DNA of 63,868 nt, filler included, from Craspedostauros australis (taxonomy: Eukaryota): the NCBI GenBank assembly GCA_030167865.1. It is 20 parts of 20 records of this genome, joined end to end, with 100 filler letters (N's around TTAATTAATTAA, not from the genome) between each part and the next. Parts side by side here need not be neighbours in the genome. Positions count along the whole stretch, not along the records: positions 17,340 to 24,385 come from JALAGF010002718.1; 19 more parts are not named here. The stretch is one strand, 5' to 3'. Positions 1 through 54,213 of this stretch are shown here, piece by piece. The notes under the pieces were generated by a model. It saw nothing but the letters and a program-made list of their open reading frames with translations, did no database searches and was not told the DNA's origin. How positions within the stretch are numbered: position 1 is the stretch's first letter; the number at the start of each line of letters is the position of its first letter. Both the position numbers and the translations under genes were made by a program.

Positions 1-2499
1 AGTCTACTTTATCACGACTCATCACGAGTAAAACTCCACAACTAGTGTTATCGTGACCCATTCTGCATTTGGTGCAGGTCGTAGCACGCGTATTGATATT
101 TGGAGCACGAACGCTTGTGCTGCATGCAAGAACGAACGCGCCACGCACAACACAGGGATTGATACAATCTGCGGCTGAGCAGGACGTGTCGTACGACACG
201 CACGCCACACATGCCTGTTGGTTCAAAGCGCTAACTGCGACAAAAACAAGAACAACAAAAAGAAAACGGCGATGTTTGTTGCACCCAGACATGTGGTGCT
301 TCAATCGCTTGTGTGGATACTACTATCTACAAGCATGTTCATATTCTATAATGGTAAGAATGTTGCTCGCATCAAGGTCCGGAAGAGCAGAAGAGTACGA
401 GCTACGAGGTACGAGTTGCACCTTCGCGTCATGGCAGAGATTGCTTGTGAGAGCAACGCCGTGACTGCCTCCAGGAACCATCCAGGTCGACGAGCACCAG
501 ACAATCGCATCGTGCAAACAACGACCACAACGCACAGAGCTGAATGCTAAGGAATGGGCAGAATAGAACCATGCAACAGCATATCTTCACGTCTTCGTCC
601 GTTGCTTGTATGAATTCTGCGACAACCGACTGCCAAATGTAGAGTAGAGTAATCGTTCTTGACTCCACGAGCGGCTACAAGGCGAACGTTCGTACACTAC
701 GTATGGGTGAAAAGACGGAACAGGTGATTTTTTGCTACACCAACAAACAGCCGCGAAAACACAAACAGAGAAAGAAACGAATACACAAACAGACAGATAT
801 CGTTGGAACAAACAGACGAGCAGAAACAAAGACATACATGCCTCGTGTTGGTGCTGACCTCTCGCTTCAGACAGACCACACACAATCTGGAACAGCACTC
901 TGTTTCGCTCTGTCGTATCGCATCACATTTCGTCACATCACGCCGCATCATGCTGTGTACTATATTGCTGTGCACAGAATATCATCTGAGAACACCGGCG
1001 ACAATGCCTGCAGCAGCAACGCTGGCCGCGATGTTGAAGCTGGCTGTTTCGTGTTGGCTTGTTGCTTGTCGTCCTCGCCGAGCGGAATCTGCAAGGGGCA
1101 CAGGACGCACAAGTCTCGAGCAAAGACAAAGGCGGAGACGTGATCATTCGGGGCTCAACCTTCGTCGTGGAACTCCCTAAGTTGCGTGAGCATGTTCATC
1201 GGAAAATAAAAACATCAAACGAGACTGGCTTCGTTGCGTTCGTTGGCTCCGATCGGCTTCACTGTGGGCGTGTCGGAGATGTTCCTCCTCCCGTTCACAT
1301 CTGCTCCAGAACGCCTGCCCCGATTCTCACCGACGCTTTTGCTGTCTCACAATGCTCACGTATTTCGCTGGCCGTTCGTTGTGCTGCGAAATGTCCGGAA
1401 GCTCTTTCTCCCTGTGGAGTCCGAATATCGTCTCCTCCTGCTCTGTTTCTTGCTTGTTGCTGCTGGGGATGTACGAGGTACGGGCACGAATAATCGGAAC
1501 AGGCTACTATTGGTATCAAGGAGTAGAGTAGAGTAAATTGGAGCAGATTGGATTGGAGCAGAGTTGAGCTGAGTTCGAGTACGCGTGTGAGTACTACTAT
1601 GCATCTGTGCTTGCGAGGCGATGTGGTGACAACGATGCAAACGTCGGTTGCGAGGCGATGCGATGACAACAGCACAAACGTCTTTTGCGCAGCGAAACCC
1701 CCATAGAATCCAAAGAGGGCTTTGCGGAAGGAAGATATCTCACTGGGAGCGGCGATGTTCCGACAATGATATTGCGAATAGCTGGAACTAGTGACTCACA
1801 AATTAAGAACATCACATTTTGTCACTTTGCAATTGAAGACAACATTGCCTTGTTGACATTTGCGACAACCAGTGCCGCTCGGAAAAACTTAGCGTTCGTG
1901 TCATGACAGTGAATGGACCGGGGAAATAGGATGTGCCAATAAGTAGTGAGAGATTTCGTGACGCGAACAATCACGGTTTCGTTGTCTGGTGGGAACCACA
2001 TGCTTCGTTTCTGGCTTCTGTGTCCATGCAGAAACACACACATTCTCGACAACACCTTTTCTCCCGAACGAACGTGAGGATCCCTCCACCTAGAAAAAAA
2101 AAACGGCAGAGAAACAAGCCAACCTTTGGGGCGCTGTGGGCATGAATGGCAACGGCAACAGCAATGGCAACGGCGGCAATGGCAACAACGGCAACAGGAG
2201 CACCACCTTCAAAACTGTCACAAACAGCAGCGCAAGAACCAGCAGAAGATCCATTTTCGCATTGTGCCCATCGCTGTGCTGAAGCGACGTTCCTTCGTGC
2301 GTCGCCGCTGCCCACTTCTATCATACTGAATCACTCGTGCCGTGCGAGCAACTCGTCCACTTGCAAGTCCAAGCACGAATACTTCCGCACCTCATGCATC
2401 TCATCTGTGGGTGCCAATCAAAGATCAACAATCAACGTTCAACCACCTTCCAATCCTCTGTGAGGGTAACCGCTCATACCCGCGCCACAGCTCAACAAG

Positions 2500-5400
2500 G
2501 TGAACAACACAAGCAATATCTCAGCCACAGCCACAGCTACAACTGCAACCGTAACATATCGTACGAGTCCACCACCTACAACACTTCCAAACGAAGCCTT
2601 GGTCCGACGAGGGCAAGGAGGAACGACGACACCTGCGGCATCTGCGGCATCTGCGAGAACTGAGACAACTGAGACAACTGCGACAACCACGACAGCACAC
2701 ACCACAACGCGCTGCAGGATGATATGCTCAGCTCAGAATGTGACCGAGCAACACTGCATTCCTCCCCACCGAGGAAGCAAGCATGCTCGGACCGGGCCGT
2801 CGCGCCAGGAACCGGCATCAGCCCAAGGCGGCGTTAGCAGTGCGTGCGGCAGTATCTGCACAGACAATGCGAATACAGATGACGGCCGTTCACAGTCTTC
2901 AGTGGCTGGGCAGACTGCGTTTCGCCTTTCCCCCAGTCGCAAGAGCCAAACCGCAAATGGCGGCGAGAGCGGCGACATCTGTGGACGGCCAACAAGACGT
3001 GAACATGAAGACAAGAGAAGCAATGCGGACGGAAGTGCGCGCAAGGCAAGATCGAACGATCCAGAAGGGACGACCAAGAAGAAGCCAAGGAAGAAGCCAA
3101 AGAAGAAGAGGCAGAAGAAGAGCGTGAAAGGCAGCAACGCAAGCAGCCAAGAACACAAGCAGGAAGACAATGACAGCAGGGAAAGGAAGAAGAAGAAGAG
3201 CAACAAGACGAAGACGAAGACAAAGAGGCAGGGCAGCAAGGCGACGAAACACGGGAACACGGCGCGCAAGTCTAGTGGCGATCATGCGAGTGCCAATGCC
3301 GGCGTTGCACTGGACAATACAGAAACAGAAACAGACGGCAGTCACACATCTCATGCTTCGCTGCCTTTTGCGTCGCGGCCGCCACACATCGAAGCCGACG
3401 GCACTAATGCCTTGGTACGCAATTCCAAAGAACGCAAGAAGATAGAGGAAGCATTGAAAGACACCAGTCGATCCGCACCAGCAGAAATCGCGATCGTACC
3501 TTGTAACTCCGTTGAAGACGAAGAACAGAAGTCGCCTCATGCCACGGTACGCCAAGGGGAGCGAGATTCGCCTCCAGCACAGCAATCTCAATCCGAGGCT
3601 TCAAAGATCAAGATGCCACAACGAAAGAAAAGCCAGCAACGGCAGCAACGACAGCAACGGCGACAACGACAACAACGAAAGCATGCAGCGCAAACAAGAT
3701 CCGGCGCACAACAGCAACCTCATCAGCGCACGCTGAAAGCTGGAGCAGACAAAGCAGGAGGGGGAATTGCGCCACCCGCCAACCCAACAAACATGGCTGG
3801 GCAGAACCTGGCTTCCTCAAATGTCTTGGAAACTGCTGCGGCCATCGCATCTGCACTTGAGATTGTATCGCCTCCACCCTCGCAACCAACTACGCCATTG
3901 CCTTCACCAACGTCGTCCCCGCCGCCGTCATCGTCGTCCAAACAGAAGAAGAGCAGGCTCGTCAAGCGGTACCCTCGAGCTGCTGCAATCCACCCAGAGG
4001 TTGACGTGAGCCCAGCAAGACAAGAGCAAGTTGCCGCCGATGACGATTTCAACCCGTTGCGGGCGAGCACAGCCGGCCAACCACAGCCACCACCACCACC
4101 ACCACCAGCAGCAGCACCGACAGGATCCGCACGATTGCTTGAAGAAGATGCGGTGCAAACAACAACGGCCACTGCACAAAGCAGAGGGCATGCCACCCGC
4201 CGTCGAAAACTCAAGACAACCTGGCCGCCAGTGACAAATCGCAGATCAGAGAGCCCCGACAGCCGTCGTCATGACGCGGTGAGCGCGGTAGAACGGTGTC
4301 GAAGGAGGCCAGGGATCATGGACGTGAATCCAACACATGATATCCATCACAGAACAAGCAGAGGAGCTTGCGATTCAGAGTGGTGCACCAAGGGCATCCG
4401 ACGAGCCCAGCTCGACCTCAACACCCAATCGATCAGTGGAACCGTCAGGCGCAGGAAGGAACACTTCCAACTGGTCTCCAACGCCGTGGCAACTGCCAAT
4501 CTGGTTCAGCAAATACCATCGCCATCGAACTCTCCACTACCCGCCATCAGGAAGAAGAAAGAGCGTCTTCGGGACAAGAAGCGATCCAGACGACGAAACG
4601 ACGGTGGCAGACCGGCAAAGTCTGTGTCAGCTCCTCCAAGAACGTCGGCACCAGTATCTCCAATGACACCCGCCAAAAAGCCAAACGCAGTACGACGGAG
4701 TTCGAATTGGCAGCGAGGTGCAGAATCAGTCGAAAAGAGCCCTGCTGATCGTCCTAACGCACCTCCACGCCACGACCACCCACTCCAGACACTTCCGCTT
4801 TCCCATTCGAAGGATAGCACAGGTGGGGTTTGCCTTTTTCTCCCCCATGCATTGGCAAAGCGTCAGAGCATGAATCTGATATTTTCCAACAGCCGGGGAA
4901 GCGGGAGCGTCCCTTTGGATGGCAAGGACAAGCGACTGTTGCCACCACAGCGACGGCGGTCGAGCTGGCATGCGAGCACCGCGCTGCAACGTGACAGAAG
5001 ATTTCACTCCAATCATGAGACACGCACTGGTGAAGAGGACCGCAAAACCGAACTTGGTTGCCACGATGCCCCTTCTACGCAAACGTTGCATCATTCGTTG
5101 CACCACAGCACATGCGCTCGTGACGTGCTCGCTGACGACGATAATAGCACCAATGGTGGTCACGACGAAGGCAGCAGATACGACGACGACTTCGAAAACG
5201 ACGAAGCGCACGACGACTTTGATGAACACGACCCGTTCTTCGCCAAGTTGCCATCGCGCGGGCTCTTCCGCCGCCACAGCGCACAACCGCTCAAGCAGCT
5301 CTACAAACGGAGGCATCGGCAGATGTACAACGGGACTGAAGATGGTGACAGCCTCGAATCGAGCCTCTTGCACCCAGCTCGCCGCCGCAAGCATCAGCCG

Positions 5401-7779
5401 CCACGACGAGAGCGAACGAACTACAGGTTCCGATACGATGGCCCGACCACCTTGGCGTTAGACCGGGTGTACTCCCACGACCTCCTCGACGGGGACCGCT
5501 TCAATGCCGGCAACGCAGGATCCACCCCGTTGGATCGTCCCAGACGAAGCCAACGCCAACGTCAGCAGACTGAAGCCAACCGGACCTGGTCTGAAGGTTC
5601 CGCAGCCACTCGAAGCATGTCAGCGCCTCCAGCGAAGCCTAACAGGGGTACTTCCAAGAGCCTCGGCGGAAGTGACATCGACGACAGTCTTCACGACGAG
5701 TCCTCCTATGAAGAGCATGGTAACGGGTCCGGCGGTTCTGATTGCTCGATCGTTTCAGATGATCATCTATCAGATGATGAATATGAGGCCAAGGGGCACA
5801 TCCTCAAGGCCACTTTGCGCCCAGATGTTTGGGTGACGCCCATTCGTTCAGCCTGCTCCACGCGATCCAATTCCATGCCATCACGAGACGACAACGCCTG
5901 CACAAAGGCCGGACAAGATGGAGATACAACTTGCCGTCGCGGGCCTGTTCTTTCAGCATCCCCCAATGACCACTTGGACCCTGCGTTCTCCACCTCCGAT
6001 GTCAGCGTAATGTCTGCGCGTCAGTCGAACAGCGAGAATGCGGACGCCTCTGGAACGCCGTCCGCGGCGGTATCGGACGGCGCGCAGCAACGTGACGATG
6101 ACGCCTTCCAACCGTCCACGAGTACAGAGGAAGCTGATCCTGTGCGGAGGTGGAAGATCAAACGGGTTTGGTACGTCGACCATGTCGATGCGGACGAGGA
6201 AGAAATGGTCGCCGAGTCACGAGAAGAGCTCCATGAAGGCCTTCGCAAACTCTTCGGTGTCCCTCCCGAAGACGAGACCAAAGCACCTGACAACGTTCAC
6301 GATGGCGCCGACGACAAGGACAAGGTAGGCGTCGATGGCCAAGCCGGGCAACCATTTGGTTCACGGCATGCGCTGCATGTGCCTGCACGGAGTGGCAACG
6401 AGGCAGCAGCCTCACCATTGTCTCGTGCAGCACCAGGCATCATTGCTGATGGAGCAGATGTCGACGATGACTCCTTGGGGGCAGGGCAAGCGAAAACACG
6501 TAGCGCTGTACATGCAAATGAAGACGCAAGCGCAAATGAAGACACAAATGCGAAGGTGAGCCAGGATAGCTGGCAGCAATCTCCTTCATCTGTCAAATCG
6601 CAATACTTCAAGGCATGGCGAGTGACGAGGTTGATCGATATCGACGGCGAGCTGTTGGACGAGCAGGACGGCTCTGAGCATTCCATGACAGACGACGACC
6701 TCATGGATCATCTGGCGACAATGGCCACGGAAGAGCTGGAGTACGTGGAAAGGCAAGACGAAATATCCGATAAAGAAACAGAGGGTGGGCAGAGTGACGA
6801 AGAGTCAGTATCGTCCATCTGGCGCGACCAGTGTGGAGATAGCGACGGTGAGGAAAAAGCTGCCGAAGACGATCAACGCAATCTCGGCCAGCACATGAAA
6901 AACGCAATCTCTCGCCACAGCTTGCGTGCATTCGGACGGCCAGATGTTTGGGTGTCGACGGATGGCAGCGGCTTTGCATCACCAGCCAGCCGCAGCTACA
7001 GAATCAAGAGGACATACGTGGTCCAAGACGACGATGAAGACAGTATTTCGGATGACAGCTTCGCCATACGAGTCGATGGCGAGGATCTTCACACCAGCGA
7101 AAGTCCAGCTGGCACAAATTCGAACGGATCCCAAAAACCCAATTTCAAGTTCACCACCCATAGTCATGCAAATTGCTTTGATGATGACGATGACGACGAT
7201 GAAAGCGATATGGGAGCCGACAGCTACAGTTACAGCGAAAGTGAGTGCGACAGCAGTAGCGACAGCAGCAGCGAGAGCAACAGCGTGAGTGAAGAAAACA
7301 CCTTGTGTCGGACGGTTGATGACATCCCCGAGTCACCGGTGACACCCAAAAGCTTGGGTTGCAGTGGCAGCTTGCACGGGGAACGCGCTTTCCAACGTCC
7401 CGACGTGTGGGTGTCACCAGAAGTCAGAGAACCGAGCACCAAAGTTCGATCGTGGACCATCAAACGCATCATCGATATCCCTTCAACCTTGCTCACTGAT
7501 TCCGACGATGAAACTGATGAGGAAGACAACATCAAGCACGCGATTGAAGATGATACATGCAACGAATTTGACAAGGGAGATGGCACAGGCGCAGGCACAG
7601 GCACAGCTCGTAACGTCGACCACGATGCAAGAGGAAAGAAGGTGCACTCCGAAAGGGACGGCAAAGACTCCGATTCTTCAAGCTCTCGCAATGAGACTCC
7701 TTTGCCCAAGGCACTCGACGATGTGGACTCCAAGAATGACAGAACGCCAATCAAGTGCAACCGCAAAAGGATCGCGTGA
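2500..7779 (+). CDS. Large, mostly disordered hypothetical protein: basic N-half, acidic C-half, repeated RPDVWV / W-x-I-K-R modules
   Basis: 5.3-kb uninterrupted ORF. The start is uncertain: the first in-frame ATG is at 2719, and the same-frame ORF 2146-2463 could be an upstream exon. Confidence 0.8.
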   Translation: MNNTSNISATATATTATVTYRTSPPPTTLPNEALVRRGQGGTTTPAASAASARTETTETTATTTTAHTTTRCRMICSAQNVTEQHCIPPHRGSKHARTGPSRQEPASAQGGVSSACGSICTDNANTDDGRSQSSVAGQTAFRLSPSRKSQTANGGESGDICGRPTRREHEDKRSNADGSARKARSNDPEGTTKKKPRKKPKKKRQKKSVKGSNASSQEHKQEDNDSRERKKKKSNKTKTKTKRQGSKATKHGNTARKSSGDHASANAGVALDNTETETDGSHTSHASLPFASRPPHIEADGTNALVRNSKERKKIEEALKDTSRSAPAEIAIVPCNSVEDEEQKSPHATVRQGERDSPPAQQSQSEASKIKMPQRKKSQQRQQRQQRRQRQQRKHAAQTRSGAQQQPHQRTLKAGADKAGGGIAPPANPTNMAGQNLASSNVLETAAAIASALEIVSPPPSQPTTPLPSPTSSPPPSSSSKQKKSRLVKRYPRAAAIHPEVDVSPARQEQVAADDDFNPLRASTAGQPQPPPPPPPAAAPTGSARLLEEDAVQTTTATAQSRGHATRRRKLKTTWPPVTNRRSESPDSRRHDAVSAVERCRRRPGIMDVNPTHDIHHRTSRGACDSEWCTKGIRRAQLDLNTQSISGTVRRRKEHFQLVSNAVATANLVQQIPSPSNSPLPAIRKKKERLRDKKRSRRRNDGGRPAKSVSAPPRTSAPVSPMTPAKKPNAVRRSSNWQRGAESVEKSPADRPNAPPRHDHPLQTLPLSHSKDSTGGVCLFLPHALAKRQSMNLIFSNSRGSGSVPLDGKDKRLLPPQRRRSSWHASTALQRDRRFHSNHETRTGEEDRKTELGCHDAPSTQTLHHSLHHSTCARDVLADDDNSTNGGHDEGSRYDDDFENDEAHDDFDEHDPFFAKLPSRGLFRRHSAQPLKQLYKRRHRQMYNGTEDGDSLESSLLHPARRRKHQPPRRERTNYRFRYDGPTTLALDRVYSHDLLDGDRFNAGNAGSTPLDRPRRSQRQRQQTEANRTWSEGSAATRSMSAPPAKPNRGTSKSLGGSDIDDSLHDESSYEEHGNGSGGSDCSIVSDDHLSDDEYEAKGHILKATLRPDVWVTPIRSACSTRSNSMPSRDDNACTKAGQDGDTTCRRGPVLSASPNDHLDPAFSTSDVSVMSARQSNSENADASGTPSAAVSDGAQQRDDDAFQPSTSTEEADPVRRWKIKRVWYVDHVDADEEEMVAESREELHEGLRKLFGVPPEDETKAPDNVHDGADDKDKVGVDGQAGQPFGSRHALHVPARSGNEAAASPLSRAAPGIIADGADVDDDSLGAGQAKTRSAVHANEDASANEDTNAKVSQDSWQQSPSSVKSQYFKAWRVTRLIDIDGELLDEQDGSEHSMTDDDLMDHLATMATEELEYVERQDEISDKETEGGQSDEESVSSIWRDQCGDSDGEEKAAEDDQRNLGQHMKNAISRHSLRAFGRPDVWVSTDGSGFASPASRSYRIKRTYVVQDDDEDSISDDSFAIRVDGEDLHTSESPAGTNSNGSQKPNFKFTTHSHANCFDDDDDDDESDMGADSYSYSESECDSSSDSSSESNSVSEENTLCRTVDDIPESPVTPKSLGCSGSLHGERAFQRPDVWVSPEVREPSTKVRSWTIKRIIDIPSTLLTDSDDETDEEDNIKHAIEDDTCNEFDKGDGTGAGTGTARNVDHDARGKKVHSERDGKDSDSSSSRNETPLPKALDDVDSKNDRTPIKCNRKRIA

Positions 7780-15999: not shown

Positions 16000-16099
16000 N
16001 NNNNNNNNNNNNNNNNNNNNNNNNNNNNNNNNNNNNNNNNNNNTTAATTAATTAANNNNNNNNNNNNNNNNNNNNNNNNNNNNNNNNNNNNNNNNNNNN

Positions 16100-17239
16100 G
16101 TCTCGTTTGATCTTGCTGTACACTTTGCGTGTGTCCATGGAGTCGAACTCTTTCTTGATGGCTGCTCGATATCCCTTTTGATGGATGGGATCTGGGTGAT
16201 TGAAGGCTCCATCGAATGTCGTTGGTTCGATGTGCTTCTCTGGTTCCTTGTTCTCGTCCTGCATCGACAGTCCAATGTCGATCGCTGGTGCGTCGGTGAT
16301 GATTGCATTCATTCCATATAGTCCTGTTGTGCTATGGTGAGTGATCTCGATCTCTCCTTCATCTGCGATTTCTTCGTCATCTGTAGTTTCGTTGTTGGAG
16401 TCGTCGGTCACCTCGTCGCTGAGTTCATCACTCGCGTCATCGGATGATGGATCGCTTTCATATCCTTCTTCCTTTCGACCTCGTTCGTTGAAGTCTGCGA
16501 GCTCACGTAGAGCTCTGGGAATGCTCTTCCCTGTAGTTGACTTGGGATTAGTTTCTCCCTTCCTGCCTCGTGCTTCGTGACGTCGGATCCTCTCCTTTCT
16601 AGCTTTATCACGCTTGTTTGGCTTGCTCGGTGGAGGTCTGGAAGGTGTACCATGTGTAGATCTCGCTGGTGTGTTCGGAGGAGTGACGCTTGTGTCATCG
16701 TCGGCTTCGTCGCCGGATGGTGTGATCTCGTCATCCTCATGATTGGATTCGCTCCGATCTTCCTCGTCGTTATGGACCAATTGAGTTACTACTCCGTCGT
16801 CCTCATTATCCTCGTCGTCGCTGTCTGATAGGATATAGTACATGTTGCTGTCAGCAAAAGATACTCTCTTTGCTTCCGATGCTTGACGCGTTGCCGTCCT
16901 TGGCATCGCTCCCTTCCGTCCAATGATTGTTAAGCCATCTGCGTCCGTTGTTCCTACTTCGTTGGATATGTTTGGTGCTGGTGTCCAGCCACGGAACTGT
17001 CCGTATGATTGGTTGAGCCATTTGATGTCGCGAGAGCAGATGAGTGACTTGGTTGATGGTCTGTACATGTTGTAGACCCCTGATGCGTGTTGGTGTGCAT
17101 ATCTGATGAACACCATCTCTTCTCCTCTATTCTTGAGTTTGGCGGTGATCCCGCTGTAGGTAGTCTTCACAACACCCACCTCTCCAAATGTACGGAGTGC
17201 ATCCGCATATGGTGGATCGTTGCCGAAGAATTGTCGATG
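16100..17239 (-). mobile_element. pol: Ty1/Copia pol fragment: integrase C-terminal SH3-like region, acidic linker, start of RT
   Basis: LRTFGEVGVV..KLKNRG..FIRYA..YNMYRPSTK..SRDIKWLN, then EPTTFDGAFNHPDP..AAIKKEFDSM. Open across the whole contig. Confidence 0.92.
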
Positions 17240-18390
17240 NNNNNNNNNNNNNNNNNNNNNNNNNNNNNNNNNNNNNNNNNNNNTTAATTAATTAANNNNN
17301 NNNNNNNNNNNNNNNNNNNNNNNNNNNNNNNNNNNNNNNAATAGATGGCGAACAATGATGACACTGTAGTAGAGTCTACAATAGTACTGCATTGCACAAT
17401 CGCACTCTACTGAAGTCAACGCCACGCACTTCTCTTCCGCAAGATGAAGGAGCACTACCGCTTTGCAGACACACACACAAACTACCAGACAGACTAACAA
17501 GACAACACAAGATACTGACATGAAGGCATACCCTACAAGACCGATAGAACTGAAACNNNNNNNNNNNNNNNNNNNNNNNNNNNNNNNNNNNNNNNNNNNN
17601 NNNNNNNNNNNNNNNNNNNNNNNNNNNNNNNNNNNNNNNNNNNTTTTACCGCTGCTTTGTCCGTTGGGCATGGCCGGCGGACACATTTCCGCCTGGTCGG
17701 CGTGATGGCTGAATCCTTTCCGGTCGGAGTAGTATGAGTCTTATCGATGTCGTATGCGTCAGTGCAGTTGTCTCATGGCTGTGTTGTCGATGATTGGTCG
17801 TAGTGGCTATCGTGTAACGTCGTTTCAACGGTTTCATACATATCCCGGTTTGACCCAATTGCGCTCAGCTAGTTCCACTCACAAATTTGAGTTCCGTTGA
17901 CAACATGTGGCGCGAGATTGGTCCATAAATGGGTTGTTCTGAGCGACATCAAGACGACAACGTTGTTCTGTTCTTCCACAAAATTGGCGTTGGCAGGATC
18001 TTTCCAGGTGAACTGTTGGGGTGACTTCTCCACATTGTCATGTCTGGAGTTGAAGAACCTCGGCACACACAGTTCCAGCGAACGGCCACAGAGACAACAC
18101 CACGCCATGACACGTGACGCTCGTGCAAGCGACTCATCGTCGTATGCATGCTCATGCGCAGCAACCCACAGGTGTACGCATGGCTGCTCTGCTACTCTAC
18201 GACAGGTGCTTCCCACTCATCCACCTTCTTGTCCTCTCCACACAAGAGGGGAGCGTTCGCCACATGCGAAAAACCAACGAAGACGGCGGCTGGCGAAGGA
18301 ATGGCAGCAGTTCCTGTTGCTGTTCGTCCCTTCCTTCCTCGGACTCCAAATCATCTCATAAATTCTTCATCTCGTTGATGACGAAAAGCC

Positions 18391-21300
18391 ATGCATTCTC
18401 ACTTCCACCAACGAATCCTTGCTGCTGTGGTGCTTGCGGCGCTTGCCGCTACGGCAGTGGCATCCCCGGTGCCAAAGTTGACGGTGAGTACGAGCAAGAT
18501 GGCAACTGTCACTGTTGTCTCGACGCGTGGGGGTTCCTTCTTTGCTGGCATTCTCGCCTTGCCCCATCCGCATCCACAGACATACGCGTACGTGCATTCA
18601 ATTCAATGATCCCATCCTCAACTCAACCATGATTCTGCACCTTGCATTATACAATACATTACAACGCGTCACATCACATCGTGTCACGTCCTTCATCACA
18701 CAACCAACAACTGAATCTTTCAGGAGCCATGCCTCGTCTCGGCACGGATCATTAGCGCTGCCGGTGGAACGGATGCAACTGACTTATCTTGCATGCTCCA
18801 AGGCTCCGATGAGGAAGAACATGGGCCTGTGCATTTGACCATCGAAGGGCTGACGCCGGAATGGGCCAAGAACAACCAAGCATGGCCAACTTCCTCTTCC
18901 AAGTCCACCTTGTTTCTGGAGAATGTCATCATCGATGTCACCGACTTCTCCTTGAAGCTGCCGGACTTGACGACCGTCGATGACATGACGATCGAGCATC
19001 ATCAACCAAGCGAACAAAGCGATGGGCATGGACATGGACATGGTCGTTCTCTGAATACTCCTGATGTCTTTGGTTCTGGTGACAAGAAGTTCCTCCTCAT
19101 CCAGGCCGTCTTCCAAACCAACTACACAGTTCCCAAGTCCCTCATCAAAGATGAGATCTTCGGCGCTCAGCCCAACTTCACCGACCAGTTCGCGGCCATG
19201 TCTTTTGACAAGCTGAGGCTCTCCACCATGCCGACGAATGGGACAGATGATGGGATTTTGACAGTTGGGTTTTCACCTGATGTTGATCCCACCACTCTCC
19301 AGGCAACAGCAGTTGATAATCTCATCTCGCAATATCTGAAGCAGGAGGTGAAGATCTATGATGACTTTGATTTCTTCTTGATCATGGTCCCATTCTCGTT
19401 GGCTAGCCCCATTGGAACTGGTTGGATCTGTGAGTGCCGACAAGAACCACGCAACTTGTATCTCCGTGTCAACATTACGCACTGATATCGCGATGAGCTC
19501 GACCCGTGATCATCCTCCTATCTAACCCATCTCACTCCAGCGTGTAATACCATCTTTCTTCCGTGCGAATCAAACTCTCCCGATTATCAACGCGCGCACC
19601 GATGTAACCAACACACCACTGATTCACAGCGTACGCCTATTTCGACCAAAAGATCAGCGTGTACAACGGTATCGAAGAGTATCCAGGCACGCACTGGGCG
19701 GCCAACCTATACTTCATCCTCAACGGACTCGGTCGCAACTTTGGGCTTGACAATTCCAATCGGAACGGGGAAGAGTTCGGAGATCGCAGGTAAGCGCAGT
19801 CAATGCGCCAGCAGAGACAGAGAGAGAGGTTGGAGGCGATCTGTGACTTGCTGCATCAATCTTTGTGGACGGATGGACAACCGGACACAAGAACGCACAC
19901 AATCAAACTCCAGAGAGAGCACATTGGACGCGTCTGTCATGTTCTGGTCCTCATCACATGAGAGGAAACCTGTTTCTCGTTCGAAGCCCATCTAACCTCC
20001 GTCTTTGTGTATCCTCTTCCTCGTTGTTGACGTCCTCCGGTCAATGGATTCCGACCCCAACATCGACTATTATTCCGCAGCGGCGCGATGGGCGGAACAG
20101 TTTTTGGTCCATTTTTTAATGAAACGCTGAGCGATAAGGTGGGGTACAACGGTAAGTGCTCCTGCGTCGTCGCCTTGCGGAGAGCCAGGGCCCAAATGAT
20201 TCCATTGCAGGAGGAGTCGTGTCACCTCATCACATATGATGCGATGCGACACTCTACGTACGCTGTCTCACCAATCACTACCTTCTCCATCGTTTCGTTC
20301 TTTGCGTCCGCGCCAAATCATTTCACACCCTCCTGCCCATGCTGCAAACCAACTCCTTCAATACCATTACCCATGTGCCTGCCCCTCCACCAAACATAGG
20401 TGCCAAGAGCTGGGTGATGGGGTGGTACTCCGATCAGACCACATCGCTCACCGGAGGTCAAGACATCGACTTTGAGGGAAGGCTCTGCGGAGTGGTCGAT
20501 TATGACCCCGCTGACACCAGCTTCGACGTCATCATCCGAATTGACGATCCTGAGAGTGAACTGAACTACTACATCGCCTTCAACAGAGCCATCGGCTTCA
20601 ACGCCGATTCTCCACTGGGCAGGGATCAGGTCCTCGTGACAAGGGCACAAGACCACAGCACCGAGACTCGATCCTCTAATCTGGAGGCCATCCTGAACAC
20701 GACACAAACATCGTACAGAATTGATGCCCAGTCGTCTTTGTTGGATGGGATCGTTATTTCGGTATCCAACATCGATGATGACTCGACCACACCCATGTGT
20801 GTGACGGTGAGTGTGAAACTGGATTTCAGTCAATCGCCAAGTGAAACACCATCCGTTTCTATGGCACCATCATTGTCATCACCTCCATCGAATGTTCCGA
20901 GTGTGACCCCCTCGTCTGTCCCAACCGGAAGTTGTGGCACGTGGGATTCGACAGCGATCGCCGCCTCTCGCTTCGATGAGCGCATTGAGTCATTCAGATT
21001 CGATGTTCGCATACTGGACAGCATCGAATTCACCGCCATCAAGGTCGCCGTGGCTGCTGGATTCACCAACATGCCATACACGATCTTCTTCCGTCCAAGC
21101 ACCTGGGATGCCGATGGCACCTGGACTCAGATTGCATCAGGAAACAACGGAGAAACGGACTCGTCTGGCTTCACCCCCTCCCTCATATTTGATCAGCCCG
21201 TGGCGGTGTCTGCGGAGAATGACATTATATCCTTCCGCATTGACATGGCCGACAGGTTGAGGGATTTGGCTTCACCGTCTCCGTTTGTGATCCCAGAGGA

Positions 21301-22318
21301 CTTTGTCGTGTGTCCAGACTGCCCATTCGAGGTATTCACCGGACAAGGTAGCCTCGAAGTTGGAAACAACCCGCCTAATTTCAGCGATGGTTTCCCCTTC
21401 TTGTCCGGCATCCTCGAATTCTGTCGGGATTCGAGCACCGAGATGCCAACTGGATCTGCTTCCCCCACTACGACAACATCGCCATCAATCCAGCCATCCG
21501 CAGGCCCCACACAGGCACCAACAGACACCTGCCGCGACGCAAAAACAGCAGGTCTCCCAAGAGCATTCTTTGACGACACGGTCGCTTCAGTGCGACACGA
21601 CATTCAGATTCTGGATAGTGTCGACATCACAGGCATGAGGCTTGTCCTGCCATCGATGGGGAACCAAAATTTCACAATCTTCTACCGCCCAAGTACTTGG
21701 GATGCGCCCGGGAATTGGACAGAACTTGCATCGGGAATGATCGAGGCCAGAGGTGGTGGCAATTTCACAGATGTGATTGCATTCGACCAACCTTTGGCTG
21801 TGTCCAAAAGCGACGACGTGATCTCCATCCGCATCGATGCACGAACGAGCACAGGGAATGAATTCACGAACACCATCATTCCCATCCCTCCAGACTGGCT
21901 TGATTGCGACAATTGCCCATTCACTATCTTTGCGGGAACGGCGAGTGCTGTTGTCGGTGATTATCCTCCTCCTCTCTACGATGGTTTCTTTGAGTACTTC
22001 ATGGGTTCACTGGAATTCTGCAACGGCAACTCGATGATGCCGTCATCCGCGCTGTCATCCACGCCGTCATCCATGCTGTCGTCCACACCATCATCTGCGC
22101 CGTCATCCACGCTGTCGTCCGCGCCGTCATCCGCGCCGTCGTCCATACCGTCATCTGCGCTGTCGTCCGCGCCGTCGTCCTTCCCTTCCTCCCAACCATC
22201 TCACATGCGCAGCACGAAGGGGACGAAATCATACAAATCGGACAAGTCATCAAAGGAGAGCAAGACAAAGTCTCCCAAGTCATCCAAATCAAGCAAGTCG
22301 CCGAAGAGCTCTGAATGA
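18391..22318 (+). CDS. Secreted peptidase M11 (gametolysin)-like protein, catalytically dead, with two tandem C-terminal domains and a K/S tail; about 982 aa
   Basis: Exons 18391-18483, 18724-19429, 19630-19789, 20081-20151 and 20400-22318. All introns are GT..AG with compatible phases (total 2949 nt). Signal peptide MHSHFHQRILAAVVLAALAATAVA. M11 motifs GWISYAY..SVYN, DRSGAMG (Met-turn), NGAKSWVMGWY and YYIAFNRAIGFN. Confidence 0.88.
22030..22200 (+). repeat. Coding 12-bp (PSSA/LSST) tandem repeat, Ser/Pro linker
   Basis: Repeated (c/t)gtc(a/g)tccrcgc units. Confidence 0.85.
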
Positions 22319-22913
22319 GACCATTCAATGAGTATGGATACTCGTGCATCCAGCTCCTGTAGCAACAATGAAGGCAGATGTTGGTCTATCACCAAACCAT
22401 GGGACATTCCTTGACCACGGGATGAAGGATGCCATCGAAGCCCGAGGATTGAAGAATGAACAATCTACTCCATCATACAATACATGATAGCGTCTTCACA
22501 CAAGCACATGTAATATAATACATTGCAACCTGCCAAGCTCCTCCGTCCACATAGCTCGTATAATATATTCTATTCTATAATAATATAATAGAATAGTATG
22601 CAGGCCGCCCGCAGAATACTGTTTGTACGTATGGTAGGTGTGCTTGCTGCCATTTTGGTCGGATTCATGTTTACAACTGTTCCATGGTGATACGCTCTGG
22701 GCAGGAGCACTTCGTGAAATCCATTCTCATCCTCCATCGTAAAATGACCGCCAAGAGTTGGGATTCGTGTGTTGTTGCTGATGCGATTCGTTGAGAAAGT
22801 CTTGCGAACTGTTGGTTCCAGGATGACCGTTTTCGCCATCGTCGTCGCCATCGCCACACCCCAATACTCCTCCACATTCATCCTCTCTCTCTCTCTCTCC
22901 AGAGATCCTCGCC

Positions 22914-24385
22914 ATGGGCACTTTGACAAAGTCAACGAAGAAACAATATGCCGCCGTTGGGGTTCTGGTGTTGACGAGCTTGCGGCAAGCCATCCTCGTG
23001 CCGCAGTCCTTTGTTGATGAGCCGAGCGGTTTCTTTACTACGACGACAGCCTCCGATCGCAGCGACAGCAGATCGCCACAAAGCCGGCCTCCGATTGCTG
23101 CTGCGGAAATGCTGAGAGACTTTCCCGAGTTCATGCTGCAATGGCCGACCGAAGCAAATCTCACGGATCCGCTTGCGACCAGTCCACCGAAGCACAGGTG
23201 CAACATCTTCAACGCCAACATTCCACACAGATTCCAGATTACCAACCACTCAACAACCTACGACACCGATGCTGTCTTTGGCAGCAAGTCTCAGAACTTC
23301 CACGAAGCATGGCGAAGCAACAAGCAGGGCAGTGGAAGGGATGACACCGATGCAGCCGAGCATGCGAATATGCTTGCTAATGCCATGGCAGGTGCAGATG
23401 CACAATCCGACAGGTTACCTTCTGCCAACAGTACGACTACTGGTGCGATCATCAAGACGGCTGCGTGCGCCATCACCAACTTCACATTCTCCCACCACTT
23501 CCCACATCAGACGCAGCACACCGTCTCCTGCTGGTCGCTGTGGCAACACTTTCCGAACGCGGCACATGTCTTGATCTTGCGTCAAGAGGATTACGCAAAG
23601 TTCTCCAACGCTTCCACGTTTAGCAGGGGCATGATCCAAGTGCTGCANGCAAGTGGCGTCTCCATCCTCCAAACCACCGTCGACGACTTCGTGCAAAACC
23701 AAGCATCCAACATGGAAGAAACGGTCTTGGTGGAGACGCCGGCCGCCGATTTTCAGGGATTCGCGACGGCGCACGAAGGTGATATTCCAAGTTTGAGACA
23801 CAGTGCGCTGGCAGCATTCGGGCTGGATGGATACAGCAATGCATACTGCTCTCCCTATCTGTTGAGCGATGGAACCGCAACCGCCGCGAGCAATGGGACG
23901 GCAGGCGAGACCATCACCGAGATGCGCCAACCCCGCATCGCCATCGCCACTCGCGTTGAGACGCGATCGTTGATCGGCGCGCACACCATGGCCAGCCATC
24001 TGCGGGATCAGNTCAAGTTGNGGTACACGCCACCGGTTCTCTTGTTNGAGACGCTCTCGTTTCAGCAGCAAATCGAAGCCTTCAACAACGTCGATATCCT
24101 TGTGTCTGCGCATGGTGCGTTGCTCACCGGCATCTTTTTTATGCACCGATGCAGCGCAGTCATCGAGGTGTTCCCAACTGGATACGGCCGGACGCGGTAC
24201 TTTGGAACGCTGTCAGCAATCTCTGGTGTGAATCATTCCTACGTGTACCTGGGCAACGACATGGTCGCTGAGAGCGCCAGAAACAAGAGACCGAGGCAGA
24301 TCTGGAAAGCCAGGATCGCTCATTTGTGCGCACCGGTCCATGCGCTTGTCGAAGCTGTGCGCCTACAGATCGACCAATGGAACAA
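22914..24385 (+). CDS. Glycosyltransferase family 61 (DUF563) protein, 3' end lost in the gap
   Basis: N-terminal hydrophobic anchor; HFPH; PRIAIATR..RSL; LSFQQQIEAFNNVDILVSAHGALLTGIFFM..SAVIEVFP..YFGTLS, the GT61 signature region. Confidence 0.88.
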
Positions 24386-25195
24386 NNNNNNNNNNNNNNN
24401 NNNNNNNNNNNNNNNNNNNNNNNNNNNNNTTAATTAATTAANNNNNNNNNNNNNNNNNNNNNNNNNNNNNNNNNNNNNNNNNNNNTGAGGAAGTAACATT
24501 TTGGTGCTGTTGCGAATTGTGAGCTCTTCGTGTGTCGGGAAATGTCAAAATGAAGCGAAAACACAAATGTCAGCAAGGCAACTGCCATCATTGTCAGCAT
24601 GGTGCGTGAAAGAACTGCAACTTGGCAACAACGAAACAGTGTTTCCCCTCGTAGAACTCTGCTTGTCTCGTGGTAGAACAGTTGTTGTCACCTTTCGCCT
24701 TTGGGGAGCTGATCACACGATACGCCCTGCGACAAACGCGAACTGTTGTCCCCGCGATGCCACTCGATTGCGCAAGGGTGCTAAAGAAACCAGCATCCAA
24801 CGGACGACGAGGTCGTATTCTTTTCTTCATGGCCNNNNNNNNNNNNNNNNNNNNNNGGTGTATCCACGACTCTGTGTGGGTGGTCACTTGGAATGACGTG
24901 TGCGCTGTTTCGTTCGTCCCTGTACTGTAAGACAAGAGCACTGAGGAGGGCAGAGCGAACATGTTTGGAGTCGCCGGTCATCCTTTGTATTGGCAAACTC
25001 CTGCGTGCGCGATGTTGTCACCCACACTGAGGACTCCGGCAAGGGACTTGTGCGCAGTATGAACAATGATGGACCTACAGTCATGAGGATGCAAATACGG
25101 ACGGCAGGCTTGCATTGGCATCCGACGCATGGCGTGTCTGTGTCTTGCGAAAGTCGTGCTCATATCGCGTTCACGTCGCGCTCATGTCATGTCGA

Positions 25196-33433: not shown

Positions 33434-35553
33434 CTACACGTTGTAACATGATGCAGGAGCGGTACACACGCCATCACCATCCGCGATCCCGTCGGAACTA
33501 CTCTCGCAGGCCTCGCTGCCAAGGCAACTACCATTGCCGACGTCGTACGCAGAATAGCATGCGGAGTACCCAATGCACGAGTCGTTCCCGATGTTGTTGG
33601 CGTAGCACGCAAAATCACCAAGGCATGACCCCGAGCCGATCGTTTTTGAGGCTGCAGCGATTTTGCAAGCATTGACACCTTGACAGCTTTCCTCTCCGAT
33701 TACGTTCAAGGCGGCTGAAATAGTGCAGGAATTCGACCCCCCACCACAGGATCCGCTGTTGATATAATTGTTGTTGGCAGTGATGATGCAAGCTTGTGTG
33801 ACGGTGCAAGCATAGGCCTTGATGACGTTGTTTTCAGCGCCTGATTGGATGGAGCAGGCTCGGGTTTCGTTGCACGAGTTTTGGAAGATCTGGTTGCTGG
33901 TGCCGGTGATGTCACAGGCATCGAGGGCAACGCAAGCTCCGCCGTAGATGTAGTTGGAATCGCCATTGATGGCGCAAGCAGAATCTCCGTTGCAGGAGCT
34001 TCCAAGTAGCTGGTTGGAGTTGCCAGTGATATCACAAGGTTCGCTCCCAATGCAAGATCCGTAATAGAGATCGTTGTAATCTCCCGTGATCGTGCATGTC
34101 GTTGGGGCAGTGATGTTCCCCGCCGAATTGTCGTAGCAAGTGAATTTGAGCATGTTCGAGTCTCCGGCGATGACGCATGCATTATAGTAATAGCATGCGA
34201 AGTCTTGCAGATCGTTCTTGTCTCCAGTGATGTTGCACGAGTTTTGGAAGTGGCACGCCTTATCTCCAATGGAGTTGAGGCTACCGTTGATCACGCAGGC
34301 ATCATGCATTTTGCAAGAATTGCCAATCTTGTTGTCATCGCCATTCACGGTGCAGGCCTTGCTTCCTCGACATGCATCTTCCAACATTTCATTGTTGTTG
34401 CCATTCACTCTGCAAGCCTCCGTGGCTTGACATGATCTGGCGGAGAAGATGTTGTTGTCGCCCTCCACATAGCATGCCCCGATGCCTACACATGAATCAC
34501 TGTGGAAGATATTGTTGCTGGCAGTGGTGTTGTATAGATTTCCGCAGGAATATTGAAGTCTGCAAGAGTTCGATTCGAAGGTGTTGTTCGTCGAGGCTCC
34601 ATACGTGAAGCATGCACTTTGTGCGGTACAGGCGCTGTCTCCGACTGTCACATCTGAGGCAAGTGACTCAAAATAGCAGGCGTACTCGAGAGATCCATTG
34701 AGCACCAAGCACGAACCCTCACCGACTGAGAATTGGGACACGTCCACCGCATAGCATGCTTTTTTGCCGAGGCATGAGACAGGCCCAATGGTGACGCCCG
34801 TGGCTCCACCAAAGGTACATGCGCCATAGCCGTTGCAGCTTCCTGAACATATCTCTACGTCGCTGCCACTCCATTTGCAGGCATCTGACGGAGCAACCCC
34901 TGTGCAGAGGCCCGTTCCGTCAGAGCAACAGCAGTCCAGGCCTCCATTTTGACAGAACATGATCGCGCCAGCTGCAGTGCCAGTGAAGCAGCTGGCGGTT
35001 GGTTCTTCGGAGGGGAAGACTGAAAGCGTTGGAGAAAGGGAAGGGAGGTCTGAAGGTGCGACGGACTCGGTTGGAGTCTGCGACGGCATATTGGATGGAG
35101 CGATGGACTTTGTCAGTGTCTGCGACGGCATATCAGAAGGTGCACTGGACTCGCTCGGGGTTTGAGACGGCACATTGGAGGGCGTAAACAATTCTGTCGG
35201 GTCGAAAGACGGCACCATAGAGTTTGTCGGTGTCTGCGATGGCGAGTCTGATGGTGCGCTTGAGTCCGTTGGAGTTGCAGATGGCAGAGTTGATGGTGCG
35301 CTGGAATCAGTTGGAGTTGCAGATGGCAGAGTTGATGGTGCGCCTGAGTCCGTTGGAGTTGCAGATGGCAGAGTTGATGGTGCGCTTGAGTCCGTTGGTG
35401 TCTGCGATGGCAGAGTTGATGGTGCGCCTGAGTCCGTTGGTGTCTGCGATGGCAGAGTTGATGGTGCGCTTGAGTCCATTGGAGTTGCAGATGGCAGAGT
35501 TGATGGTGCGCTGGAATCAGTTGGAGTTGCAGATGGCAGAGTTGATGGTGCGC
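33434..35553 (-). CDS. Extracellular-type protein: S/T/P mucin-like stalk followed by about 22 Cys-rich repeats; 5' end lost in the gap
   Basis: ORF open to the contig edge. 14-aa repeats APSTLPSATPTDSS, then about 20-aa repeats (S/A)C-x5-C-x-I-x-G-x-x-N-x-(I/L). Confidence 0.9.
35220..35553 (-). repeat. 42-bp coding minisatellite (at least 8 units)
   Basis: GATGGCAGAGTTGATGGTGCGC recurs every 42 bp. The contig breaks inside the array. Confidence 0.95.
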
Positions 35554-35762
35554 NNNNNNNNNNNNNNNNNNNNNNNNNNNNNNNNNNNNNNNNNNNNTTA
35601 ATTAATTAANNNNNNNNNNNNNNNNNNNNNNNNNNNNNNNNNNNNNNNNNNNNTCGCGCAGGAGACCCATTTTGCCTGTCGTTGTCGTCATTTTTTGTTT
35701 GTGTGGTTGCCAATTCGAATGAATCCCGTTGGGTCTTCGATGTTAGACCTGAGGGAAATTAT

Positions 35763-46358: not shown

Positions 46359-47685
46359 GATGAATTTGTATCAAGGGTTAGGTTGGGCGATACTTTTAGG
46401 AGTTAGTCGCACGGTTGGGGGTGGGGTTTAGGAATAGATACCTGCTAATTTTCATTGTGCTGTGAGTGATGAAAAGGGTTTCAGCATTTTGAACTTGTGG
46501 CAAGGGTGAATGGCTGATGAATTTGTATCAAGGGTTGGGTGGGCAATACTTGCAGCAGTTAGTTGTGTGGTTGGGGGTGGGGTATAGGAATAGATATCAG
46601 CCAATGTGTGTTGTATGGTGAGTGATGAAAAGGGTTAGGGTGTTCCAGCATTTTGAACTTGTGGCAAGGGTGAATGGCTGATGAATTTGTTAGAGTGTTA
46701 ATGTGCGATGAATTGGTATCAAGGGTTAGTTTGGGCAATACTTGCAGCAGTTAGTTGTGTGGTTGGGGGTTAGGGTATGGGGTATAGGAATGGATATTGG
46801 CCAATATGTGTTGTGCCGTGAGTGATGAAAAGGGTTACAGCATTTTGAACTTGTGGCAAGGGTTAATGTGCGATGAATTGGTATCAAGGGTTAGTTGGGG
46901 CAATACTTGCAGCAGTTAGTCGCGTGGTTGGGGGTGGGGTATAGGAATAGAAATCAGCCAATGTGTGTTGTATGGTGAGTGATGAAAAGGGTTCCAGCAT
47001 TTTGAACTTGTGGCAAGGGTTAATGGGTGATGAATTGGTATCAAGGGTTAATGTGTTAATGTGTTAATGTGTTAATGTGTTAATGTGTTAATGTGTTAAT
47101 GTGTGATGAATTTGTATCAAGGGTTAGGTTGGCAATACTTTTAGGAGTTAGTTGCGTGGTTGGGGGTGGGGTATAGGAATAGAAATCAGCTAATGTGCGT
47201 TGTATGGTGAGGGATGAAAAGGGTTACAGCATTTTGAACTTGTGGCAAGGGTTAATGTGCGATGAATTGGTATCAAGGGTTAGTTTGGGCAATACTTGCA
47301 GCAGTTAGTTGCGTGGTTGGGGGTGGGGTATAGGAATAGATATCGGCCAATGTGTGTTGTATGGTGAGTGATGAAAAGGGTTCCAGCATTTTGAACTTGT
47401 GGCAAGGGTGAATGGGTGATGAATTGGTATCAAGGGTTAGTTGGGGCAATACTTGTAGCAGTTAGTTGCGTGGTTGGGGGTGGGGTATAGGAATAGAAAT
47501 CAGCCAATGTGTGTTGTATGGTGAGTGATGAAAAGGGTTCCAGCATTTTGAACTTGTGGCAAGGGTTAATGGGTGATGATTTGGTATCAAGGGTTAGTTG
47601 GGGCAATACTTGCAGCAGTTAGTTGCATGGTTGGGGGTGGGGTATAGGAATAGATTTTGGCCAATGTGTGTTGTGCTGTGAGTGA
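46358..47685. repeat. 157-bp telomere-associated satellite, 8 copies
   Basis: GGTTGGGGGT anchors at 46413, 46569, 46761, 46926, 47158, 47315, 47472 and 47629. The core spacing is 157 bp; longer units carry short expansions. Confidence 0.95.
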
Positions 47686-48176
47686 TGGCAATTGATGTAC
47701 ATTCCATTTTGGATGTACGAGTTGTGTTTGGCTTTGCAACATCATGAGTGAGCTATGTTCCAACCATGTGTCAACCGTGTGGACAGTGTGTGCGGTGTTT
47801 GGAGTGTGTGCATGTGCTGCGGGTCGAGATCAGCCAGTTGTTGTTGTGGGTTGAGTGATGGCCATTGCTGTACACTGCATTTTGGTAGAGTGAGTTGTAT
47901 ATAGCTTGCAGAACTGTGTGTCAACCATTGTCAACCATGTTGTCAGTGTGCAAGGTGGCTGGAGTGTGTGCATGGGCTGTGACTGCACACATCTCAGTGT
48001 GAATTATGTGGTGGATGATGGAAATGGCTGTGCCTTGCATTTTGGGTTGTCCGCAGCGTGAACCATTATGTGTGAGCTGTATGTGAGCTGTGTGTGAGCC
48101 ATTTGTGAGCCATATGTGAGTCATGTGTGAGTAGTGTGTGAGCTTGGTGCAACCAATGGGTTACCTACTTGACAGT

Positions 48177-54130: not shown

Positions 54131-54213
54131 GGGTTAGGGTTAGGGTTAGGGTTAGGGTTAGGGTTAGGGTTAGGGTTAGGGTTAGGGTTAGGGTTAGGGT
54201 TAGGGTTAGGGTT
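54131..54213 (+). repeat. Telomere (TTAGGG)n, chromosome end
   Basis: About 14 perfect units running to the contig end, G-strand 5'->3' outward. Confidence 0.95.

Follow-up and report, generated by a model that had tools for sequence, protein, structure and literature searches.

What becomes of a secreted M11-type protein in which every residue of the zinc site has been replaced, and is the gene that encodes it a working component or a relic? The question is raised by a gene at positions 18391-22318 (+) of a 63,868-nucleotide stretch of Craspedostauros australis DNA (assembly GCA_030167865.1), the whole of which we refer to as the window. The window is made of parts joined by 100-N filler, and adjacent parts need not be neighbours in the genome; positions 17,340-24,385 correspond to JALAGF010002718.1. 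The predicted product resembles the diatom 'gametolysin peptidase M11' proteins, with substitutions at all three zinc-ligand histidines, at the catalytic glutamate and at the four conserved cysteines of the catalytic domain. The explanation that we consider best overall, at a probability of roughly 60%, is that it is a selected, non-cleaving, M11-derived binding or wall protein.

An M11 homologue with a replaced zinc site

The second exon of the gene was compared exhaustively with 1.84 billion representative proteins, and eight matched at E <= 0.001. Seven of these are short environmental frames of 219-332 residues on contigs of 1.2-1.9 kilobases (kb), with their ends at the intron-2 position or close to it, and they constitute the exon-2 family alignment (A1); the eighth (P0005) is an internally repetitive protein of 1025 residues that matched over nine short stretches, and was dropped as spurious. 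Using the most M11-like fragment (P0008) as a query, we retrieved 12 full-length proteins of 501-768 residues (E 1.6e-48 to 2.2e-9), from which a diatom M11 profile (A2) was built with the window protein left out. Four of the 12 are annotated as 'Gametolysin peptidase M11 [Fragilaria crotonensis]' (P0009-P0012), and the others are from MMETSP transcriptomes (P0013, P0014 and P0018 among them) and Mediolabrus comicus (P0015). All 12 match PF05548 (best E 4.7e-19), and each has an intact H-E-x-x-H-x-x-x-x-x-H motif followed by a Met-turn.

The spliced product aligns with the 12-protein profile in a single alignment spanning residues 30-519 (185.5 bits, E 1e-58 with Z = 1), and neither the reversed sequence nor any of 500 shuffled sequences exceeds 3.8 bits (281 shuffles were reported, the remainder falling under the reporting limit). 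Comparison of alignments with hhalign gives a probability of 100% for A1 against A2 (E 2.9e-59), 99.0% for 20402-20860, which encodes the first 153 residues of exon 5 (E 4.1e-18), and 87.4% for exon 3 alone (E 3.7e-6), with N-G-L-G-R-N...N placed under H-E-x-G-H-N...H. The language-model cluster nearest to exon 2 in the Atlas is a 'Gametolysin peptidase M11 domain-containing protein' (0.94, with 191 of 256 features shared), 11% of whose members carry PF05548, and PF05548 is found below threshold in three of the eight exon-2 relatives (14.3, 14.5 and 20.2 bits, for a cut-off of 21 bits). As judged by these comparisons, homology to the diatom M11 family is established, and the product is a divergent paralogue within it: over 310-319 aligned positions of the catalytic region it is 21.0-29.9% identical to the 12, which are 31.0-88.7% identical to one another (median 41.1%). 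Because the defining HExxHxxxxxH motif is absent, it is classed as a non-peptidase homologue and not as a peptidase of the family.

Codons 298-308 of the spliced frame correspond exactly to 19722-19754 and encode N-G-L-G-R-N-F-G-L-D-N where the family has H-E-x-x-H-x-x-x-x-x-H, with the substitutions H298N, E299G, H302R and H308N at the zinc and base positions. An earlier note on this DNA had proposed a gametolysin (M11) homologue with all three histidine ligands and the glutamate replaced and with an intact Met-turn, and our alignments agree with it on each of these points. The Met-turn residues D318, G321, M323 and G324, which occupy columns that are invariant or nearly so in the 12 and span the exon 3/4 junction, are kept, as are G301 and N303 within the motif, W289, W352 and both prodomain cysteines. 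The same note counted a Gly-Leu pair among the intact structural residues; as a small correction, this 'GL' is not strict in the family, and seven of the 12 diatom relatives have N-L. It did not mention the loss of all four conserved cysteines of the catalytic domain (C190M, C252M, C290A and C341G).

Of the 37 columns that do not vary among the 12 relatives, 20 are kept in the window protein, comprising none of the four zinc-site columns, none of the four cysteines and 20 of the 29 others (one-sided Fisher p = 6.3e-4 for zinc site and cysteines against the others, and 0.017 for the zinc site alone). Of the nine other changes, which are for the most part conservative, one is a deletion and the rest are R>Q, L>F, V>F, S>Y, Y>F, S>T, P>D and D>N. 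No active relative departs from any of the 37 columns, and for each of them 37-46 columns are invariant among the other 11. The loss of catalytic residues and cysteines is targeted, not uniform. Several of the eight replacements require at least two base changes, and insertions of 7 and 5 residues relative to the 12 flank the zinc site.

The product is very probably a pseudo-peptidase incapable of metzincin catalysis. The roles of the zinc ligands and general base are as described for M11 and M12 (PMC7518263), and with three histidines and the glutamate missing, established metzincin enzymology implies that zinc would not be held and water would not be activated. Residues 140-485 retain just two histidines (288 and 429) and two cysteines, and for this reason no substitute three-ligand site is apparent. 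It is highly improbable that the protein is still a hydrolase with another metal site or another chemistry. Variation at the first zinc ligand is reported within the family, with Gln in place of His in Volvox M11 enzymes, and nearby Asn and Asp side chains might offer a binding site for Ca or Mg; against this, no His, Glu or Asp is present at any of the four positions, the general base is replaced by Gly, and His 288 and His 429 are the only histidines available. In the account of metzincins given in PMC7518263, no member is known to be active without these residues.

Structure of the gene

The gene was assembled by coordinates as five exons on the + strand, giving a spliced frame of 2949 nucleotides (nt), with 982 codons, a stop codon and no internal stops. 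Its features are as follows.

18391-18483 (+): exon 1, with the start codon (the first ATG after an in-frame stop) and a signal-peptide-like N-terminus, 31 codons, donor ACG|GTGAGT
18724-19429 (+): exon 2, prodomain with conserved cysteines C34 and C54, and the N-terminal half of the M11-like domain (hhalign, Atlas)
19045-19053 (+): R-S-L, residues 139-141, an R-x-L site where the prodomain meets the catalytic domain
19630-19789 (+): exon 3, active-site helix region of the M11-like domain (hhalign)
19722-19754 (+): erased zinc site, residues 298-308, N298-G-L-G-R302-N-F-G-L-D-N308 for H-E-x-x-H-x-x-x-x-x-H
20081-20151 (+): exon 4, which completes the Met-turn (S-G-A-M-G) and encodes the next loop
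20400-20824 (+): first part of exon 5 (20400-22318), C-terminal half of the M11-like domain, to about residue 485 (hhalign)
20933-21430 (+): C-terminal domain A, 166 residues with four cysteines, predicted all-beta, of no known family
21530-22027 (+): C-terminal domain B, a tandem copy of domain A
22040-22201 (+): Ser/Pro-rich repeat, residues 891-944, 12-nt period, 11.8 copies
22217-22306 (+): Lys/Ser tail, residues 950-979, four overlapping penta-lysine-cluster matches
22316-22318 (+): stop codon TGA, from the reading frame

A stop-to-stop listing of 18000-22500 shows two long frames (18715-19485 and 20240-22318) with nothing but short ones in the roughly 800 nt between them, and the catalytic segment lies within small exons outside the large frames. 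The four introns (240, 200, 291 and 248 nt) are all of the GT...AG type with good extended consensus, the junctions in order being ACG|GTGAGT...TTTCAG|GAG, TCT|GTGAGT...TCACAG|CGT, CAG|GTAAGC...CCGCAG|CGG, and ACG|GTAAGT...ACATAG|GTG, and retention of any one of them introduces one to three stops. The hidden small exons, the intact splice sites and the stop-free frame had all been put forward in the earlier note, and the coordinates, exons and residues that it gave are correct.

The exon 2/3, 3/4 and 4/5 joins each fall within continuous conserved sequence of the homologues. At the first of these, G-W-I|S-Y-A-Y corresponds to G-W-I-A-Y-A-Y; at the second, F-G-D-R|S-G-A-M-G corresponds to Y-G-D-x-S-G-x-M-G; and at the third, Y-N|G-A-K-S-W corresponds to C-F-N-G-A-K-x-W. 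Introns 2, 3 and 4 are independently supported because their joins sit inside unbroken homologue sequence, and we take the locus to be a genuine gene of five exons in a genome of diatom type.

A different account of the missing motif would be a wrong gene model or an assembly error, with the true transcript carrying an intact HExxH. The window is draft sequence interrupted by runs of N, among them those around 17400-17700 and within 22827-24437, whereas 18391-22318 is free of N, a single error would be insufficient to alter four separate codons, and exon 3 aligns unbroken to the homologues on either side of the motif. We also looked for an alternative exon with an intact HExxHxxGxxH, a possibility that the earlier note had named; the sole HExxH in the + strand frames of 18000-22500 is at 21865, out of frame in exon 5 and directly after a stop, and since no other usable HExxH frame exists there, the locus is without an alternative catalytic exon. 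We regard the artefact as very improbable.

N-terminus, processing site and C-terminal modules

By inspection, exon 1 encodes a basic residue, a 16-residue hydrophobic core (residues 9-24) and A-V-A before S25, and the signal peptide proposed earlier appears intact. The prodomain aligns with the relatives from residue 30 and includes both conserved cysteines, C34 and C54, and an R-x-L; the proposed RSL site following the prodomain (139-141) is also present, with its R and L in columns conserved in at least 10 of the 12 homologues. In diatoms, R-x-L has been described as a general motif at which the precursors of wall proteins are processed (PMC4557024). Two further R-x-L triplets, at residues 547 and 631, are both within domain A.

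The M11-like domain is followed by a Ser/Pro linker, two 166-residue four-cysteine domains, the Ser/Pro repeat and the Lys/Ser tail. Domains A and B are 40% identical (E 7e-41), and no counterpart was found among the 12 active relatives. Pfam gave no match to exon 5, and hence none to either domain, and the Atlas neighbours of the C-terminal domain are uncharacterised diatom clusters only (0.95, recognition being lower than usual). Between domains A and B the proportion of nonsynonymous differences (pN) is 0.403 and that of synonymous differences (pS) is 0.835, which is saturated (165 codons); since pN is half of the saturated pS, the two domains have been under purifying selection since their duplication.

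The last 33 residues include 11 lysines and contain four overlapping matches to the regular expression K..K..K.{1,2}K..K, to which none of the 12 active relatives has any match. According to one preprint, this penta-lysine cluster is enough to direct a protein to silica in Thalassiosira pseudonana, and 29% of silica-associated proteins have the pattern, compared with 1.5% of background proteins (bioRxiv 10.1101/2021.09.18.460806). Anchoring of the product in the silica wall, to which the composition of the tail points, is put forward tentatively. Three of the active relatives (P0009, P0011 and P0012) have short basic C-terminal tails with K/R runs or R/K-P-T repeats, none of them penta-lysine, and a basic C-terminus may recur across the diatom M11 family.

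These modules raise the alternative that the M11-like domain is a vestigial passenger, and that the C-terminal beta domains and the Ser/Pro/Lys tail do the work of a silaffin-like wall protein, with the dead domain acting as a folding or secretion chaperone or being clipped off in maturation. Some ADAMs do discard their pseudopeptidase domains (PMC11266112), the extra R-x-L triplets at 547 and 631 and the four penta-lysine matches would fit such a protein, and the duplicated C-terminal domains show constraint. However, the extra R-x-L triplets are inside domain A and not between the M11-like domain and the C-terminal modules, and the M11 structural invariants (Met-turn, G301, N303, W289 and W352) are preferentially kept, which argues that the domain must still fold. 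We consider the passenger explanation quite unlikely.

Relatives and indirect evidence for selection

A tree of the exon-2-equivalent region was constructed from 20 sequences: the window protein, the seven fragments and the 12 full-length proteins. The window gene falls in one clade with three environmental fragments (P0001, P0006 and P0007), with a Shimodaira-Hasegawa-like (SH-like) support of 0.987. The equivalents of C190 and C252 are absent in all four members of this clade and are kept in the other 16 sequences; by this comparison a cysteine-less subgroup exists in more than one environmental source.

The gene is probably kept under selection for something other than catalysis, as suggested by the pattern of loss, the long open frame and the intact splice sites. 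The earlier note had described the gene as selected and not decaying, and its assertion receives only indirect support, from the open frame, the targeted loss, the excess of pS over pN in the C-terminal copies and the cysteine-less clade. A broader proposition is that the window gene and P0001, P0006 and P0007 represent a conserved clade of diatom M11 pseudo-peptidases without cysteines and zinc site, recruited from wall-degrading enzymes to become permanent wall components, with the cleft holding glycoproteins and the penta-lysine clusters embedding the protein in silica; we offer this as a doubtful extension.

The main rival to a selected protein is that the gene is a recently inactivated relic, a duplicated M11 gene that is drifting and has not yet acquired a stop or frameshift. 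M11 is strongly expanded in some diatoms, such that dead copies are to be expected: there are 17, 50 and 33 copies in three Pseudo-nitzschia genomes (PMC11499653), and in Chaetoceros tenuissimus the M11 domain is enriched (PMC8613185). Just upstream in the window (16052-17740) are assembly gaps and part of a retrotransposon, the branch of the window gene is the longest in its clade, and little more than half of the invariants (20 of 37) are kept. Yet a drifting copy would not readily account for 982 open codons over five exons with all eight splice-site dinucleotides intact, and the replacement of eight of eight catalytic and cysteine invariants against retention of 20 of 29 others is unlike uniform drift. 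Nor would it account for a pN well under the saturated pS between the internal domain copies, or for elaborate C-terminal modules that the 12 active relatives do not have. We consider a relic unlikely.

Several observations nevertheless weigh against a selected, non-cleaving binding or wall protein. The branch leading to the window gene, at 1.49 substitutions per site compared with 0.65-1.14 for the others in the clade, and the retention of only 20 of 37 invariants are as compatible with relaxed constraint as with a new function. The same erased site was found in no relative, the three closest being fragments that end at or before the intron-2 position, upstream of the zinc site. PF05548 is absent at E <= 10 when four exon translations are scanned singly with Pfam. 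The AlphaFold2 model of domain A, computed from a two-row alignment, is all-beta but has a predicted local distance difference test score (pLDDT) of 57.7 and a predicted template-modelling score (pTM) of 0.59, and a Foldseek search with domain A against PDB gave nothing at E <= 0.001, with generic beta-sandwich rows at template-modelling (TM) scores <= 0.48. Finally, the penta-lysine pattern occurs in 1.5% of background diatom proteins (bioRxiv 10.1101/2021.09.18.460806), and Lys/Ser low-complexity tails can match it trivially.

Other searches for relatives were less productive. Word-indexed protein searches with exon 2 and with alignment A1 as queries found no longer relatives, and no paralogue was found elsewhere in the window. 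A metagenome scan with a single protein gave one locus (L001), which was rejected after tblastn showed that it shares just one 8-residue pattern by chance. Bacterial M11 seeds, which are not used in the final argument because the full-length diatom relatives took their place, were sought with a degenerate DNA pattern encoding HExGHNxGLxH. The pattern was found at 120 loci in prokaryote genomes, 80 with full flanks, and PF05548 was reached by three of the 60 motif-bearing frames scanned, all taken from those 80, the rest being reprolysin-like, M66, M43, M54, M10 or unassigned. Genome searches with PF05548 gave partial matches only (33-48 bits), in two of three genomes and then in five of 401.

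Comparison with known systems

The window protein shares with the 12 diatom M11 relatives the two prodomain cysteines, the R-x-L end of the prodomain, the layout of the catalytic domain with its Met-turn, and the domain's C-terminal half; in many of these relatives a Pro/Thr/Ser-rich linker also follows the domain, and in some the C-terminus is basic. It differs in the missing zinc and base residues and catalytic-domain cysteines, and in the addition of the two 166-residue domains and the penta-lysine tail. Chlamydomonas gametolysin, the MEROPS type enzyme of M11, is a zinc enzyme that digests Pro/Hyp-rich wall glycoproteins, and the zinc-binding sites are conserved in most of its isoforms (PMC8643629). 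It belongs to the same Pfam family by transitive homology and is likewise a secreted, zymogen-type protein, whereas the window protein has no zinc site, and its likeness to gametolysin runs through the diatom relatives and not through direct alignment.

The nearest parallels for the loss itself are the ADAM pseudopeptidases of family M12 (ADAM2, 7, 11, 18, 22, 23, 29 and 32, and C. elegans unc-71), in which the zinc ligands and general base are substituted and the Met-turn is kept, and which act through protein-protein interactions (PMC11266112). As in the window protein, a metzincin-clan domain has a substituted site and retains the Met-turn and fold signature, although the ADAMs are of M12 and not M11, are from another kingdom, and have accessory disintegrin, Cys-rich, epidermal growth factor (EGF) and transmembrane domains. 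M11 is not among the families covered by that review of metallo-pseudopeptidases (PMC11266112), where the string occurs just twice, in article numbers of cited references.

A precedent for binding without cleavage is the H205A/E206A mutant of OgpA, an O-glycopeptidase of Akkermansia, which no longer cuts but still binds O-glycopeptides and serves as an enrichment reagent (PMC7518263). We use it as a working model, in that a metzincin cleft lacking one zinc ligand and the base still binds substrate. It differs in being an engineered double mutant of a bacterial protein, and in classification, being annotated as M11 by NCBI and regarded by its authors as the founder of a separate family (PMC7518263). 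OgpA was not matched by the diatom M11 profile in a PDB sequence search, which returned only a Pro/Thr-linker artefact and MMP-12-type matches at the motif alone (E ~0.1). For the M11 family itself, no solved structure is reported in PMC7518263.

With silaffins and silica-associated proteins the window protein has in common a signal peptide, R-x-L, Ser-rich low complexity and K..K..K.{1,2}K..K clusters. Those proteins are mostly disordered and without enzyme-like domains, whereas the window protein is a large folded protein with a short cluster tail, and may associate with silica.

How might such a protein act? The most economical mechanism is probably substrate binding without cleavage. The product would be secreted and then processed at R-x-L, and the dead M11 cleft would serve as a non-cleaving binding module for those wall proteins or glycoproteins that are cut by active paralogues. 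The two novel beta domains would add binding surface, and the Ser/Pro stalk and penta-lysine tail would anchor the protein in the silica cell wall. A plausible outcome is a wall-resident scaffold, adhesin or substrate-shielding decoy, a role that we propose with lower confidence than the loss of catalysis.

Novelty and significance

Inactive metzincin homologues and expansions of M11 in diatoms are already known. To our knowledge, nobody has assigned a function to the diatom M11 genes, of which there are up to 50 per genome. What is new here is the erasure of the full site together with loss of the four domain cysteines, the novel tandem domains and the silaffin-type tail. We found no description of an inactive M11 member in the literature searched, although the supplementary M11 figures of PMC8643629 and PMC11499653 may show others without the motif. 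If the proposed function is correct, a dead M11 with a tail of the silica-targeting type would point to organic wall and frustule proteins as the targets of the family, and could serve as a natural substrate trap for them. It would also extend to an algal family the concept of the pseudo-peptidase, documented mainly for animal M12 and M14 (PMC11266112). If the gene is instead only a drifting duplicate, it would be an ordinary by-product of gene-family expansion.

Other features of the window

Directly downstream, the frame 22827-24437 (+) matches Glycosyltransferase 61 (E 4.8e-9) and includes several ambiguous bases and an N run; that it lies next to the gene for a secreted, Ser/Pro-rich protein may be functionally meaningful or merely coincidental. 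Upstream, the frame 16052-17287 (-) contains a retroviral-type polymerase SH3-like domain (E 1.3e-7), by which we take it to be a retrotransposon fragment, and is bordered by N runs at about 17400-17700.

Fourteen perfect copies of AGGGTT, a telomere unit of the TTAGGG type, are located at 54130-54213, and 11 perfect copies of TGTTAGGG at 43350-43438, about 10.7 kb upstream of the AGGGTT array. These could mean that telomere-like repeats lie in the chromosome interior, that the region is subtelomeric, or that the scaffold is misjoined. Arrays of a satellite with a unit of about 157 nt and 28-nt sub-repeats (46516-47687 and 53401-53840) flank the genes at 49-53 kb and adjoin the telomere-like repeat, and between 42 and 48 kb G exceeds C very strongly, with a skew of up to 0.59. 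A frame of 1769 residues at 2470-7779 (+) has no Pfam match at E <= 0.001 and lies in a region with an unusual A-over-T skew of up to 0.37. At 33434-35605 (-), a frame of 722 residues has a C-terminal DUF7640 (E 6.7e-22) and an internal 42-nt tandem repeat of 7.5 copies at 35238-35553.

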